The notes under the pieces: model-generated | The model's database searches: none | What the model was told of the DNA's origin: nothing | Seen by the model: the letters and a program-made list of their open reading frames with translations, nothing else | Assembly (NCBI GenBank): GCA_965213925.1 | Contig: OZ243927.1 | Span: 928,001 to 992,000, forward strand | Reading direction: 5' to 3' | Length of the DNA stretch: 64,000 nt | DNA from: Trueperaceae bacterium | Lineage (GTDB): Bacteria > Deinococcota > Deinococci > Deinococcales > Trueperaceae | Position numbers and translations under genes: made by a program | Shown here: positions 23,528 through 27,426 of the stretch, in pieces | Position numbering within the stretch: position 1 is the stretch's first letter | Layout of the letters: each line of letters opens with the position of its first letter

Positions 23528-25525
23528 TTAGCTCGAGGCTGCCAACAGCTCCAGCGGTGTAATCTCTAAGCGCCGCGCTACAGCGTGCTCTTGCAGGTGG
23601 GTGATGAACGCATCCGTTCCTACGCCGTTTTGATTCGGTTCTTTGCGGCTGCGGAAGGAGAGGGCGTCGTTCTCGAGTTCTTTATCGCCGATGATGATGA
23701 TGTACGGCACTTTGTAAAGCTCCGCTTCGCGCACCTTGTACTGCATCCGCTCGCTGCTGGTATCAACTTCGGAACGTAAACCTGCCTCGAAGAAGCGAGC
23801 TTTAAGTGCGTGCGCGTACTCGTTGTGACGGTCTGCAATCGGCACGATGCGCACTTGTTCGGGCGCGAGCCACAAGGGGAAGTCGCCTGCGAAATGCTCC
23901 AACAGAAAGCCGATGAAGCGCTCATGGGTCGAAAGAGGGGCGCGGTGCAAACAGAGCGGCACCTTCTTCTCGTTGTGCTCGTCGATATAGAAGAGCCCGA
24001 GCCGCTCAGGTTGCGCGAAGTCCACCTGGTTGGTCGCTAGCGTGAACTCGCGACCGATGGCGCTCTTGATCTGCACGTCGATTTTGGGACCGTAAAACGC
24101 GGCTTCGTCCTCGACTTCGGTGAAGGGGACGTCATTTTTCGTCATCGCGTTACGCACCATGTCTTCGGTTTTGAGCCAGAGAGGTTCGTTGTCAACGTAC
24201 TTCTTACCTAAACCGTCTTTGCTGTGTTTGGAGAGGCGCATCACGTAGTCACGGATGTCGAAGAGGTTGAAGTAGTAGAGGTACATCTCGATGACGTTCA
24301 AGAACTCGCGTTCGAACTGGTCTTCGGTGCAGTAGATGTGCGCGTCGTTCATCTGCAAGCTGCGCACGCGCATGAGTCCCATCAGTGCGCCCGAGCCCTC
24401 GTACCGGTAGCAGGTGCCGTATTCGGCTAAGCGAATCGGCAAGTCGCGGTAGCTGCGCGGACGCGCGGCGAAAATCTTGTGGTGGAAGGGGCAGTTCATC
24501 GGCTTCATGAAGTAGCGGACGTTCTCCAACTCCATCGGCGGGTACATGTCCTCTTCGTAGTAGGCGAGGTGCCCGCTTTTGATGAAGAGCTGGTCTTTGG
24601 CGAGGTGCGGGCTCTTGACACGCTGGTAGCCCGCTCTCAGCTCGACCTCTTTGGCTAAGCTCTCGAGTTCCTCGATCATCACGCCGCCGCGCGGCAGCCA
24701 AAGGGGTAAACCAGGACCGACATCCTCGTCCAAGGTGTAGATATCCAGCTCCGCGCCCAACTTGCGGTGGTCGCGCTTTTTCGCCTCCTCGAGCATCCAC
24801 AGGTGCTGCTCTAGCTCGTCTTTGGTCTTAAACGCTACGCCGTAAATCCGCTGGAGCATCGGGCGCGACTCGTCGCCACGCCAGTACGCGCCTGCGACGC
24901 TCATCAGCTTAAAGTGTTGCGGGATGTCGCCCGTGCTCGGCACGTGCGGACCTCTACAGAGGTCGGTGAAGCCCGTCTCGCCGCCCTGTTCGTAAAAGGT
25001 CAGTGCTACGTCTTCGGGCAGGTCGCGGATAAGCTCGAGCTTATAGGGGTCGCCGACCTCTTCATAACGCGCGACCGCCTCCTCACGGGGTAATTCATAG
25101 CGGCGCAGCGGGAGCTTCGCCTTAACGATGTCGCGCATCCGCTTCTCGATGTCTTCTAAATCTTCCGCGCTGAGCGTTTCCGGTACGTCGAAGTCGTAGT
25201 AAAAGCCGTTCTCGATGACCGGACCGATGCCCATTTTGACGTCACTGCGGCTGTAGCCCTTCGCCGCGAAGAAGTCGATGACCGCTTGCGCCATCACGTG
25301 CGCTAGGGTGTGGCGCATCAGGCGTAAGACCTCGTCGTCGCGCTTGGTTAAGATAGTGACTTGCGCTTCGCCCGGAACTTCGCTGAAGAGGTCGCTGAGC
25401 TGTCCGTTCACCGTGCCACCTAGCGCGGCTTTCGCCAAACCAGGACCGATGGCTTCGGCAACGCTTTTTAGGGTCGAATGTTCGGGCAAGTCGAGACGCT
25501 TGCCGTCGGGTAGGGTTACGTGCAT
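23528..25525 (-). CDS. thrS: Threonine--tRNA ligase
   Basis: TGS domain, DLCRGPH editing domain, KPMNCP, AFYGPK, HRAP, anticodon-binding domain. Confidence 0.97.
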   Translation of the reverse strand: MHVTLPDGKRLDLPEHSTLKSVAEAIGPGLAKAALGGTVNGQLSDLFSEVPGEAQVTILTKRDDEVLRLMRHTLAHVMAQAVIDFFAAKGYSRSDVKMGIGPVIENGFYYDFDVPETLSAEDLEDIEKRMRDIVKAKLPLRRYELPREEAVARYEEVGDPYKLELIRDLPEDVALTFYEQGGETGFTDLCRGPHVPSTGDIPQHFKLMSVAGAYWRGDESRPMLQRIYGVAFKTKDELEQHLWMLEEAKKRDHRKLGAELDIYTLDEDVGPGLPLWLPRGGVMIEELESLAKEVELRAGYQRVKSPHLAKDQLFIKSGHLAYYEEDMYPPMELENVRYFMKPMNCPFHHKIFAARPRSYRDLPIRLAEYGTCYRYEGSGALMGLMRVRSLQMNDAHIYCTEDQFEREFLNVIEMYLYYFNLFDIRDYVMRLSKHSKDGLGKKYVDNEPLWLKTEDMVRNAMTKNDVPFTEVEDEAAFYGPKIDVQIKSAIGREFTLATNQVDFAQPERLGLFYIDEHNEKKVPLCLHRAPLSTHERFIGFLLEHFAGDFPLWLAPEQVRIVPIADRHNEYAHALKARFFEAGLRSEVDTSSERMQYKVREAELYKVPYIIIIGDKELENDALSFRSRKEPNQNGVGTDAFITHLQEHAVARRLEITPLELLAASS

Positions 25526-25764
25526 AGAAGTACCTCGAGAAATACTAGAGTTTTTAGTCCTTTGAAAAATTGAATCAGGTGTGCAGCATTAAGAGCGCCC
25601 AAAGCGGCGCGTTCGAGTCGTTAGATAAGTAGGACTCGAGAAATAAACAAATTCAAAGTGAGGTCTTATCCTCATAACTCTAAGGTAACATAGTTAGGGT
25701 TTTTTAGAGCGTTATGCACGTCGCAAGAAATCGCGTTAATTCTTCAGGAAAAGCATTTCAGCAT

Positions 25765-26000
25765 AGGTGAAGGCTAAAAGCCCCCTTTCGTTACGGAGTT
25801 TCCCGAAGGGACGGATGAACGACCTTTGAGCTTCGCTCTAACCTGTGTCAGCTAGTCAGCTTACGCAAGTTTTGACTTTGTCAAACCGTTCGTTTGCTTC
25901 GCGAGAGTACATAACCAGCTCGACTGGATTTCAGGTATCTAAACCTTTCCCTAACTAGCTGACTCGCTGCTCTCCCACTTCTAAAGCAAGAGCTTGTCAC
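25765..26000. ncRNA. Candidate structured non-coding RNA or non-autonomous mobile-element end of unknown family
   Basis: 13-bp stem 25847-25859/25951-25963 enclosing several hairpins, with further hairpins on both flanks. No ORF. Confidence 0.5.
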
Positions 26001-26030
26001 TCAGCACAAACTCTTACACATCTCTCTCCA

Positions 26031-26051
26031 GATAGTATACACTGTACTATC
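26031..26051. promoter_or_regulatory. Palindrome overlapping a leftward -10 box and abutting the 26052 ATG
   Basis: GATAGTA-N7-TACTATC; TATACT on the minus strand at 26034-26039. Confidence 0.45.
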
Positions 26052-26837
26052 ATGAACTTGATTGCCTTGCTTTGCACCGATACACAGCTCAGCCACACGC
26101 TCAGCCATTTTCGCAAGGCGTCTTTGGGTTGTTACCTCCATCCCATCTCTCACACTAACATGAGCGAGGTATCGCGTTCGCTCGCGCCGATGGGCTTCTC
26201 TGGCGCACTCATCCTGGACGAAGCGCAGCACGCCAGAGCGTACAGCACGGCGCAGCGCAGTTCGTTAGACGCGCAAGAGGTCGGGGCGGCGGACGCGCTG
26301 AGCGTTTCGATCGGCGGGCTCTTAGCCGAATATAACCTCGGGCGGTCGGTCGGCGCGGCTTTGCAAAATAGAGGGTGGAGCGCACGGGGGGCGAACGTCG
26401 TGCTCTTGGGAGAGGGCGCGCCCGCACGGACGACGTGTTTGGAACTCTCGAGCTTAGGAGCCGCTCACCTCACCGTCTTAGCCACCAACCGCCCCGCCGC
26501 CGAGCTGACCTCGCAGTACGCTTACGCCGCCAGCACCCAAATCACCGCGCGGGCGTACCGCGACCCCTTAGCCCACGCCTATCTGAGCCGCGCGGACCTC
26601 TTGATTCGCATAGACGAGAGCGCCGACGTTCCTGCGAATGTTCTCGGACCTCACCTGAGCGTCGTGGACTTCTCCAGAGAAGCCATGAGCCCGCTGCGCC
26701 AGCAAGCTGCGAGTTTAGGCGCGATGACTTTAGGCTACCGCGACGTGCAGGCGTATCAGATTGCGCTGGGGTTAGAGCAGATTTTGGGCGCACGGGTCAA
26801 CCCGAGCGACTTTTTAGCGGCGCTGCACTCGCTTTAA
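26052..26837 (+). CDS. Degenerate shikimate dehydrogenase-like protein
   Basis: AroE-like layout (GFSGA, AQEVGAAD, VVLLGEGAPA, YQIALG), but the TxPxK and NTD catalytic motifs are absent. Confidence 0.6.
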   Translation: MNLIALLCTDTQLSHTLSHFRKASLGCYLHPISHTNMSEVSRSLAPMGFSGALILDEAQHARAYSTAQRSSLDAQEVGAADALSVSIGGLLAEYNLGRSVGAALQNRGWSARGANVVLLGEGAPARTTCLELSSLGAAHLTVLATNRPAAELTSQYAYAASTQITARAYRDPLAHAYLSRADLLIRIDESADVPANVLGPHLSVVDFSREAMSPLRQQAASLGAMTLGYRDVQAYQIALGLEQILGARVNPSDFLAALHSL

Positions 26838-26904
26838 GAGAAACCACGTTAAGAATTACGCGGTGGCTGGAAACCCTCTATCTCGAGCTTTGCTAAACTG
26901 TCTT

Positions 26905-27426
26905 ATGAAACTGCAACGGTTCTGCCTGCTGAGCGTTCTACTCATCCTCTGCGCTTGCTCCGCGAATCCCGATGAAGCGCCGAGCGAAAACCTCGAATTT
27001 GTTTTGCAAACCGACCAGACTCGTTATCTCGCCGAGCCCTCTATAGGTTCCTCTTACAGCTTCTCTCTGACCGCGACCCTCGATAACACGACGGCTGAAA
27101 CGATCTACTTAAACCTCTGCTTTCCAGATGACACGAGCCCTATCTACGGTGTTGTGTTGGCGGACGAAGACGCCGGGGAGAGCGCCTGGAATCCGGCTTG
27201 GGGCTGTGTAGGGCATGATGAGAGCATCGCGGTAGAGCCGGGGCAAAGCTACACCGAAACGTACCGACTCGAAGCTCCCAACGCCTACAGTAGCGACGGA
27301 GAACCCATCGGAGAGACCGAAGGGCTATTCAGGCTCGTTTACGAAACGCTCGCTTGCGCTGAGAGTGATGCGTGCGCGCCCGGCTCTCTCAGCTCGAACG
27401 CTTTCAGGATCGAGCTTGCCGATTGA
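26905..27426 (+). CDS. Hypothetical lipoprotein
   Basis: Lipobox ILCAC; beta-rich body; TAAACT 5 nt before the ATG. Confidence 0.7.
   Translation: MKLQRFCLLSVLLILCACSANPDEAPSENLEFVLQTDQTRYLAEPSIGSSYSFSLTATLDNTTAETIYLNLCFPDDTSPIYGVVLADEDAGESAWNPAWGCVGHDESIAVEPGQSYTETYRLEAPNAYSSDGEPIGETEGLFRLVYETLACAESDACAPGSLSSNAFRIELAD

Follow-up and report, generated by a model that had tools for sequence, protein, structure and literature searches.

The window analysed here is a 64,000-nt stretch of a Trueperaceae genome (G000:C1:928001-992000); the genome as a whole measures 4.75 Mb with 58% G+C, and its completeness is 96.9%. Within the window, a 526-nt spacer (25526-26051) separates two divergent genes. 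On one side lies thrS (23528-25525, minus strand), which encodes a threonyl-tRNA synthetase of 665 aa; this identity, proposed in the first-pass annotation of the locus, is confirmed by the four expected Pfam domains (tRNA-synt_2b, HGTP_anticodon, tRNA_SAD and TGS), and the protein shares 72-79% identity with proteins of Trueperaceae MAGs. On the other side lies an ORF of 261 aa (26052-26837, plus strand) that appears to encode a divergent relative of shikimate dehydrogenase. The name 'aroE-like' given to it seems fair but loose: shikimate dehydrogenase is the best NCBIfam match (E 6.6e-10), which supports a weak likeness, but the score of 38.5 bits is far below the cut-off of 252 and no Pfam family matches at E<=0.001.

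The region directly upstream of the aroE-like gene (25970-26051, plus strand) is single-copy DNA with 13-mer counts of 1-2. When the genomes of relatives were searched, the stretch 25958-26051 proved 85% identical to the corresponding flank in the sister species G001. A leftward TATACT (26034-39) had been taken to favour minus-strand transcription towards thrS. The hexamer is present and does point leftward, but it lies within the block conserved with G001, directly upstream of the aroE-like ATG, and could equally serve the aroE-like gene. The same region contains the terminal hairpin GCTCT/AGAGC (25969-94); in the sister species, two of its five pairs are broken without compensation. A promoter scan of 25300-26300 returned no promoter-like site and no sigma-70-type site. 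A terminator scan of the same interval returned one terminator-like site, at 25674-25659 on the minus strand, inside the thrS leader.

The other end of the spacer is occupied by a putative leader-peptide ORF for thrS (25589-25675, minus strand). It has 28 codons, ends in ...LTTRTRRFGRS and is probably leaderless. Six nucleotides before its ATG lies a TGnTAnnnT motif (TGT TACCTT, 25682-25690, minus strand) which, as read from the sequence, resembles an extended -10 box and may act as one. Upstream ORFs with a C-terminus of the RTR type are found before thrS in 8 of 12 Trueperaceae (this genome, G001, L030, L031, L032, L037, L039 and L040); the candidates in L033 and L036 are less clear, and none is seen in L034 or L035. 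By eye, a TGnTAnnnT box can be read 6-7 nt before the ATG of the upstream ORF in this genome and in G001, L031, L032, L033, L037, L039 and L040. No variation is seen in the leader core CGAACGCG; a GC hairpin follows it and overlaps with the stop codon. The 190 nt closest to thrS are conserved with G001 (25528-25717, 79% identity). The leader folds into three hairpins, with an energy no better than that of shuffled sequences.

A close parallel exists in Deinococcus deserti: on its tRNA-synthetase mRNAs, de Groot et al. reported 5' ORFs that are leaderless and rich in the cognate residue (PMC4007540). In that species transcription of thrS starts at the ATG of the leader peptide (PMC4007540). There a short ORF, rich in the cognate residue and preceded by a -10 box, opens the thrS mRNA, and the same arrangement is predicted here. 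The D. deserti thrS peptide ends in ...VTRTLRA and the peptide in the window in ...LTTRTRRFGRS; the common part is the T-R-T core only, and the start in the window is a predicted one. With the neighbouring leader peptide, leaderless thrS leader peptides, mapped in D. deserti, would be present in a second family of the Deinococcales. In a literature search on thrS leader peptides and attenuation, none of the titles and abstract openings listed concerns a thrS leader peptide.

By this comparison, the thrS mRNA most likely starts at about 25675, which is 74 nt short of the first of the repeat modules described below. If so, the repeats are not part of the thrS leader. The suggestion that the structured region is a new type of thrS leader gives way to a conserved leader-peptide ORF with its own box (25589-25690, minus strand) which lies between the repeats and thrS. 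The leader-peptide ORF itself is outside the repeats. A 39-codon minus-strand ORF that begins 475 nt before thrS, within the repeats, was also considered; it was set aside as it falls in modules that have no counterpart in G001.

The middle of the spacer had been described as an orphan, highly structured non-coding element. It is not an orphan, as BLAST, nhmmer and 13-mer counts all identify it as multi-copy modules in its own genome that also occur in two congeners. Compared with its own genome, the spacer gives 18 further matches, all at query positions 224-444, which correspond to 25749-25969 of the window. Genome-wide 13-mer counts reach 30 within 25758-25923, and copies found by BLAST and nhmmer cover 25749-25935. 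In contrast, the stretches on either side, 25526-25748 and 25936-26051, are in essence single-copy: most of their 13-mers have counts of 1-2, and a short patch at 25593-25605 reaches 9. The multi-copy part, 25749-25969, is one copy of a repeat with nested inserts, for which the working name S element was coined in this analysis. Its closest paralogue in the genome is located at G000:C1:2938847-2939066.

Copy number differs between the parts of the element. Over three rounds of nhmmer, the module at 25884-25935 yielded 29, 61 and then 47 copies, the module at 25818-25862 yielded 10, 17 and 16, and the module at 25749-25786 yielded 6, 13 and 10. Iterated searches with 25782-25822 found 2-6 copies and with 25858-25886 found 3, while 25930-75 and 25970-26030 match only themselves in their own genome. 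For the hairpin CCAGCTYGACTGG, 64 occurrences are counted in the genome where 0.47 would be expected. Most ACCGTTCGT...CCAGCTYGACTGG units sit in a larger palindromic repeat bounded by AGCAATGAGT/ACTCATTGCT; this 10-mer occurs 205 times. The copies are extragenic to a high degree. Open frames of at least 150 codons make up 85.1% of contig C1, and the midpoints of copies fall inside them in only 0 of 6, 0 of 12 and 6 of 47 cases.

The family is restricted to the genus. The 16-mer CCAGCTYGACTGGRTT occurs 47 times in G000, 37 times in G001 and 35 times in the third congener, G002; of 58 genomes from other genera in the family, 57 lack it, and the one match outside the genus is in G051, an unpublished genome. 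The reversed pattern, used as a control, has a count of 0 in every genome. Among 40 relatives, only the two congeners match the spacer, apart from one marginal match of 34 nt (E 9.6e-4). This marginal match is also all that was obtained from the 16 genomes searched in the same order but outside the family, none of which has a credible match to the spacer. A 19-mer scan of genome contigs returned 15 loci. Only one Trueperaceae MAG has more than one match (three); the 12 single matches in other organisms are taken as chance. No paper joining Truepera with intergenic repeats was found in the literature searched.

The left half of the S element contains a three-helix core unit (25765-25844), in which an outer AGGT...ACCT stem surrounds the hairpins GGCT/AGCC and GAGC/GCTC. 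Here it measures 80 nt. Fifteen such units were compared in the genome: ten are 38-39 nt long, two are 53 nt, one is 59 nt and two are 80 nt. The 80-nt units are the copy in the window and one unrelated copy, and the 59-nt unit belongs to the closest paralogue (C1:2938992). In the ten short copies all three helices pair throughout (108 of 108 cells), against 28-58% in slid controls. Three pairs of the GGCT/AGCC helix are altered on both sides among these copies (GGCT/AGCC versus GCAC/GTGC). All of these compensatory changes are in one helix of the core unit and may represent a single allele swap or event.

Comparison of the 38-, 59- and 80-nt forms identifies a nested insert of 42 nt in the window copy (25783-25824). 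Its outer layer of 20-21 nt (CCCTTTCG...GGATGAACGACC) is common to the window copy and the paralogue at 2938992. In the 59-nt form, this hairpin insert of about 21 nt sits after the first core hairpin. The inner layer is a 22-nt hairpin insert with the structure TCCC-GAA-GGGA (25791-25812), located in the loop of the CCCC/GGGG hairpin of the outer insert; the paralogue has the outer insert and lacks this inner piece. In reverse complement, the inner hairpin of the 25885-25930 family is similar to this inner insert. The stretch 25782-25822 recurs at C1:663019-663059 with 98% identity.

In its right half, the S element forms a long hairpin with heptamer-like GTCAGC-n-AGTCAG repeats as arms. The 5' arm (25847-25859) and the 3' arm (25951-63) form the 13-bp stem that had been read as closing a multibranch domain. 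This stem is real; an inverted-repeat search recovers the two arms with 92% complementarity (12 of 13), together with a second register at 25849-61/25957-69. The middle base of the 5' arm covaries with its partner, being T with A in G000 and G with C in G001. The sequence GTCAGCNAGTCAGC has 15 occurrences in the genome against about 0.2 expected, and arms like these are present in other S copies. The right part of the element (25931-25969) consists of a loop remnant (TCAGGT...CCTTTCC) and the 3' arm, with the second register extending to 25969. The corresponding parts of other S copies, and of the orthologue in G001, can be aligned with it.

Two modules lie between the arms. The first is a 24-nt hairpin module with a TTTGAC/GTCAAA stem (25861-25884). 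The genome holds it three times, always immediately 5' of an ACCGTTCGT unit, and it is absent from the G001 orthologue and from the paralogue at 2938954. The second is the long form of the commonest module (25885-25930), which consists of the ACCGTTCGT box, a 21-nt hairpin insert (25894-25914), and the hairpin CCAGCTCGACTGG followed by ATT. An 'empty' ACCGTTCGT-CCAGCTYGACTGGATT unit measures 25 nt; the 46-nt form is ACCGTTCGT...CCAGCTYGACTGGATT with the 21-nt hairpin insert. Inserts of 19-45 nt are present in 30 of 55 ACCGTTCGT...CCAGCT units and missing from the other 25. These inserts form hairpins of 3-4 bp with 3-nt loops and a short tail. Their stems vary yet stay complementary (TCCC/GGGA, TCC/GGA, TCTC/GAGA, TCAC/GTGA and TTGC/GCAA), and several of the inserts contain a further insert or a complete 'empty' unit.

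The small hairpins listed in the first-pass annotation are not in dispute. All are present where it placed them: GGCT/AGCC at 25772-82, CGTT...AACG at 25789-821 with TCCC-GAA-GGGA inside, and GAGC/GCTC at 25828-38. TTTGAC/GTCAAA, CCAG/CTGG (25915-27), AGGT/ACCT (25932-45) and the terminal GCTCT/AGAGC are likewise found. As a description of the whole element, 'highly structured' does not hold, as its folding is no better than that of shuffled sequences. On the plus strand, 25765-26030 folds at -70.5 kcal/mol against -63.2 +/- 4.6 for dinucleotide shuffles (n=200 per strand; z -1.59, 14 of 200 shuffles as good). On the minus strand the values are -84.1 against -77.0 +/- 4.9 (z -1.44, 16 of 200 as good).

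No known RNA family is represented either. With Rfam 15 at the gathering threshold there was no match in the whole window, and none at six paralogue loci. A scan of 25450-26150 at E<=10 gave one chance match, to a plant-virus element (E 5.4, 14.9 bits against a gathering score of 80). The earlier statement that no T-box, tmRNA, RNase P or SRP signature can be seen agrees with these Rfam results. What had been read as a 'multibranch domain' consists of independent repeat modules stacked together. Perfect Watson-Crick stems, 3-nt loops and the occurrence of modules in both orientations would fit palindromes at the DNA level better than a selected RNA fold; the hairpins are probably properties of the repeat modules and not of a dedicated RNA.

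Sister species differ in the content of the element. G001 has an S element at the same site of the thrS spacer, between the two conserved flanks, and it is built from different modules. It lacks 25782-25822 and 25861-25928, has a different module of its own and carries another allele of the first hairpin; the 25885-25930 module is likewise absent from the orthologous spacer. Two further repeat-bearing spacers of G000 were compared with G001. Their flanks are 77-85% identical, and their middles of 200-480 nt cannot be aligned; module content thus differs in all three spacers compared. In the shared parts, the window copy is nearer to the paralogue at 2938847-2939066 than to the G001 orthologue: identity with the paralogue is 98% over 25749-25790, and the M3 stretch is identical in both. 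This points to exchange between repeat copies within a genome. The assembly of the third congener, G002, yielded no thrS and no aroE-like gene with DNA or protein queries, and the differences between G000 and G001 may be either gains or losses of modules.

The element had been likened both to IS110 bridge RNAs and to the ends of IS200/IS605 elements, with the remark that the window has no such enzyme. Pfam domain searches agree: no IS110, TnpB or Y1 gene is located in the window or near it. The Y1 transposase domain PF01797 is absent from the entire genome, while the same search was positive in 6 of 14 control genomes; the TnpB-type domain PF07282 is also absent, with positive results in control genomes. 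This leaves IS200/IS605 ends or an omega-RNA without an enzyme of the Y1 or TnpB type, and that comparison gains no support. The genome has only two IS110-type genes (PF01548), at C2:15872 and C1:2645717, both far from the window. When both loci (3.4 kb each) were compared with the element, the only matches, apart from one short module copy described next, were of at most 15 nt (best E 0.1). With no Rfam match either, the likeness to a bridge RNA is not supported. About 240 nt 3' of one of the IS110 ORFs there is a slightly altered, short 'empty' unit, ACCGTT..CGT-CCAGCTTGACTGG, of the CCAGCTYGACTGG module.

Self-comparison of the genome identified about ten multi-copy families that resemble insertion sequences. 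Ten representatives of multi-copy families (>=500 nt) gave no match to the element at E<=0.01, a search that single-copy or diverged parents would escape. Flanks of copies, read by eye, are CTC...CTC where the context is GCTCATT and CAGC...TCAG where it is an S element; no consistent target-site duplication, no single rule and no clean empty site were seen. Since neither a consistent target-site duplication nor an enzyme was found, transposition is unproven, and recombination between copies could explain the mosaic equally well. Among the three options offered at first (a trans-acting guide-like RNA, a new thrS leader or a non-autonomous element), only the last fits a multi-copy, extragenic mosaic.

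These data are best accounted for if 25749-25969 holds no gene for an RNA and belongs to the non-coding, repetitive part of the genome, as one member of a miniature palindromic repeat family confined to the genus; this interpretation is very probably correct. The multi-copy nature of the modules, their extragenic location, their nesting, their restriction to the genus and their differences between sister species are all direct observations. Like a Russian doll, the element has a 38-nt three-helix core with a hairpin insert of about 21 nt, whose loop houses a further hairpin insert of 22 nt. To the right, terminal inverted-repeat arms enclose the 24-nt and 46-nt modules, the latter holding its own 21-nt hairpin insert. 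The modules presumably spread or were exchanged at the DNA level. The route may have been mobilisation in trans by some enzyme; alternatively, copies may have exchanged sequence at hairpins through gene conversion or template switching. At this site the element is probably tolerated, since it lies upstream of both transcription units.

Other explanations have to be weighed against this one. One variant holds that the hairpin modules of about 20-25 nt are themselves mobile, as ultra-small insertions into hairpin loops and heptamer-like tandem repeats made by an enzyme not of the Y1 type. The proposed movers would be the 21-nt inserts between ACCGTTCGT and CCAGCT, the 22-nt loop insert and the 25-nt 'empty' ACCGTTCGT-CCAGCTYGACTGGATT unit; the driver could be template switching at hairpins during repair or replication, or the IS110-type recombinase with one of these units 3' of its gene. 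Piled up in this way, the insertions would give rise to palindromes nested like Russian dolls. This variant is regarded as unlikely. A different proposal is that the repeats form a working regulatory or architectural element, whose hairpins bind a nucleoid protein or topoisomerase, or insulate or terminate between the divergent promoters. BIMEs in E. coli are said to act as elements of this kind. Consistent with such a role, both sister species have an S element at this site, hairpin stems are retained while the sequence changes, and copies are nearly confined to extragenic DNA. However, inert DNA would also be expected to persist at a site, and the module content at the thrS spacer and at both of two other spacers differs between G000 and G001. 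The family is also missing from 57 of the 58 other-genus genomes, which have the same housekeeping genes. In addition, the terminator scan found no terminator-like site within 25749-25969, and no binding protein is known to us for these hairpins. A function of this sort is considered rather improbable.

The remaining two readings would make the element a transcribed RNA. As part of a long 5' leader that begins at the leftward TATACT (26034-39) and regulates thrS in cis, the element would at least be correctly placed, being upstream of thrS on that strand, and a second, more distant thrS promoter is conceivable. Between it and thrS, however, lies the leader-peptide ORF with its own TGnTAnnnT box, and in D. 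deserti the gene starts at the equivalent leader-peptide ATG (PMC4007540). On the thrS side, the part of the spacer conserved with G001 is 25528-25717 and not the repeats; the modules are scattered over the genome irrespective of thrS, match neither a T-box nor any other Rfam family and are accompanied by no site in the promoter scan. A long leader is accordingly very unlikely. Even less credence is given to a trans-acting guide-like RNA, of the bridge-RNA or omega-RNA type, that serves a recombinase or nuclease encoded elsewhere. Internal loops with short hairpins on either side suggest such an RNA, as do the two IS110-type genes in the genome, one of which has the short CCAGCTTGACTGG module copy near its 3' end. 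Against this, the IS110 loci otherwise show no similarity to the element, and no IS110, TnpB or Y1 gene lies nearby. Rfam has no match, and the element is a mosaic of independently repeated pieces; even the sister species does not preserve it as one unit.

As repetitive DNA, the locus shows how an apparently elaborate multibranch RNA can be a pile of repeat modules, with the real thrS control region beside it. Two inexpensive checks, 13-mer counts in the same genome and alignment with the orthologous spacer of a sister species, provide a test for RNA calls of this type. In the little-studied Trueperaceae, the S family offers a clear case of miniature palindromes nested in one another, with a size series of 38, 59 and 80 nt and with both empty and filled units.

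Several known repeat systems resemble the S family. REPINs are tied to RAYT, an IS200-like Y1 transposase that is flanked by its REPs (PMC3116915). The S modules are likewise short, repetitive, extragenic and palindromic; however, the RAYT link is missing, as PF01797 is absent from the genome. Their architecture also differs: in place of REP doublets, the S family has three-helix or single hairpins, with loops of 3 nt and with stacked insertions of about 21 nt. With no Y1 transposase in the genome, membership of the REP/REPIN-RAYT system (PMC3116915) is ruled out. Lacking this transposase, the S family could serve the study of how repeats spread without RAYT.

BIMEs are extragenic mosaics of enterobacteria in which palindromic units and other short motifs occur in varying order; their units are REPs linked to RAYT. 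The S element is an extragenic mosaic too, but the sequences and the host clade are different, and nesting of modules inside hairpin loops is not known to be a feature of BIMEs. Like MITEs, the S element is small and non-coding, has inverted ends (25847-59/25951-63) and occurs in dispersed copies whose presence varies between relatives. No consistent target-site duplication was seen in the flanks read by eye, and no parent insertion sequence among the 10 multi-copy families; unlike a MITE, which is one unit, the element is a composite of independent sub-modules.

The small dispersed repeats (SDRs) of heterocyst-forming cyanobacteria are sequences of about 21-27 nt that are inserted in one another and in tandem heptamer repeats. 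As described, they resemble the S element in module size (about 20-25 nt) and in the heptamer-like GTCAGCn and GCTCATT contexts; they belong to another phylum and have other sequences. SDRs have been named as an unexplained class of repeats (PMC3116915).

In its workings, the S element is like repeats of the REP, BIME and MITE type, while neither a RAYT nor a parent insertion sequence accompanies it. The closest described system is found within the same order. The small noncoding repeats (SNRs) of Deinococcus radiodurans comprise 295 copies of at least 9 types, are 'unusual, mosaic' and are absent from D. geothermalis (PMC1978522). By description, the SNRs and the S family are both multi-type, mosaic and patchy or lineage-restricted in distribution; no relation in sequence emerged, as the spacer has no credible match in the 16 genomes searched in the order outside the family. 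Short non-coding repeats of several types, modular and lineage-specific, are what defines SNRs (PMC1978522), and the S family answers to this description.

Some of the small repeats of the source genome, miniature palindromic hairpin modules such as those of the S element at window positions 25749-25969, lie inside larger repeats. A larger palindromic repeat family, bounded by AGCAATGAGT and ACTCATTGCT, is found throughout this genome (e.g. at C1:726540-726760, outside the window) and is often arranged as short tandem runs; about 5.6 occurrences of its bounding 10-mer would be expected, and 205 are present. The family also houses the majority of the ACCGTTCGT...CCAGCTYGACTGG module copies. Another repeat, of about 270 nt, includes the 38-nt core unit (the three-helix part of the S element) and, after it, ...TTCAGAATGACAT...TTTTTAGTTGACAG. 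Copies lie outside the window at C1:178649, 1278997, 1762242, 3067899, 4034550 and other sites, and some form inverted pairs about 2 kb apart. The sequences downstream of the copies are unrelated.

One IS110-type gene locus, L109 (C1:2644217-2647657), carries small-repeat sequences at locus positions 1287-1304 and 2676-2712. On the 5' side of the gene, another 16-copy repeat, GTACACCGTT...CAACACTGTTGTCACC, is represented by its 13-mer core, CAACACTGTTGTC; on the 3' side, a related CAACACCGTT precedes an 'empty' CCAGCTTGACTGG unit, a form of the commonest hairpin module that carries no insert. This element may target the small repeats or take its ends from them. Its ORF has 323 codons and stops before the end of the Pfam-matched frame (329 aa). 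A 774-nt IS-like element is present in eight copies; the copy at C1:335817-336590 lies within a small-repeat copy, and its 60-nt flanks are 94-100% identical to the ~270-nt and CAACACTGTTGTC repeat families.

Downstream of the S element, the aroE-like ORF (26052-26837, plus strand) matches no Pfam family. Against the shikimate dehydrogenase models of NCBIfam, whose cut-offs are 221-295, it reaches 38.5 bits; it is a divergent or repurposed relative. No family was found for the next ORF (26863-27426). Searches of the congener G002 with DNA and protein queries recovered neither of the two genes, thrS and the aroE-like ORF, although the assembly is rated 97% complete; the region may be unassembled.

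On the thrS side, a single-copy stretch of 29 nt (25720-25748) separates the conserved thrS promoter region from the first repeat module, and has no counterpart in the orthologous spacer of the sister species. A conserved thrS leader-peptide ORF of 28 codons, ending ...LTTRTRRFGRS, lies with its upstream box at 25589-25690 on the minus strand. The box, TGnTAnnnT, is 6 nt 5' of the ATG, and a GC hairpin overlaps the last codons. Similar leader ORFs are found upstream of thrS in eight of twelve Trueperaceae regions. The CGA-ACG-CG codon string is invariant, wobble positions included. The ORF in the window is of the same kind as Deide_06409, the thrS leader peptide mapped in D. deserti.
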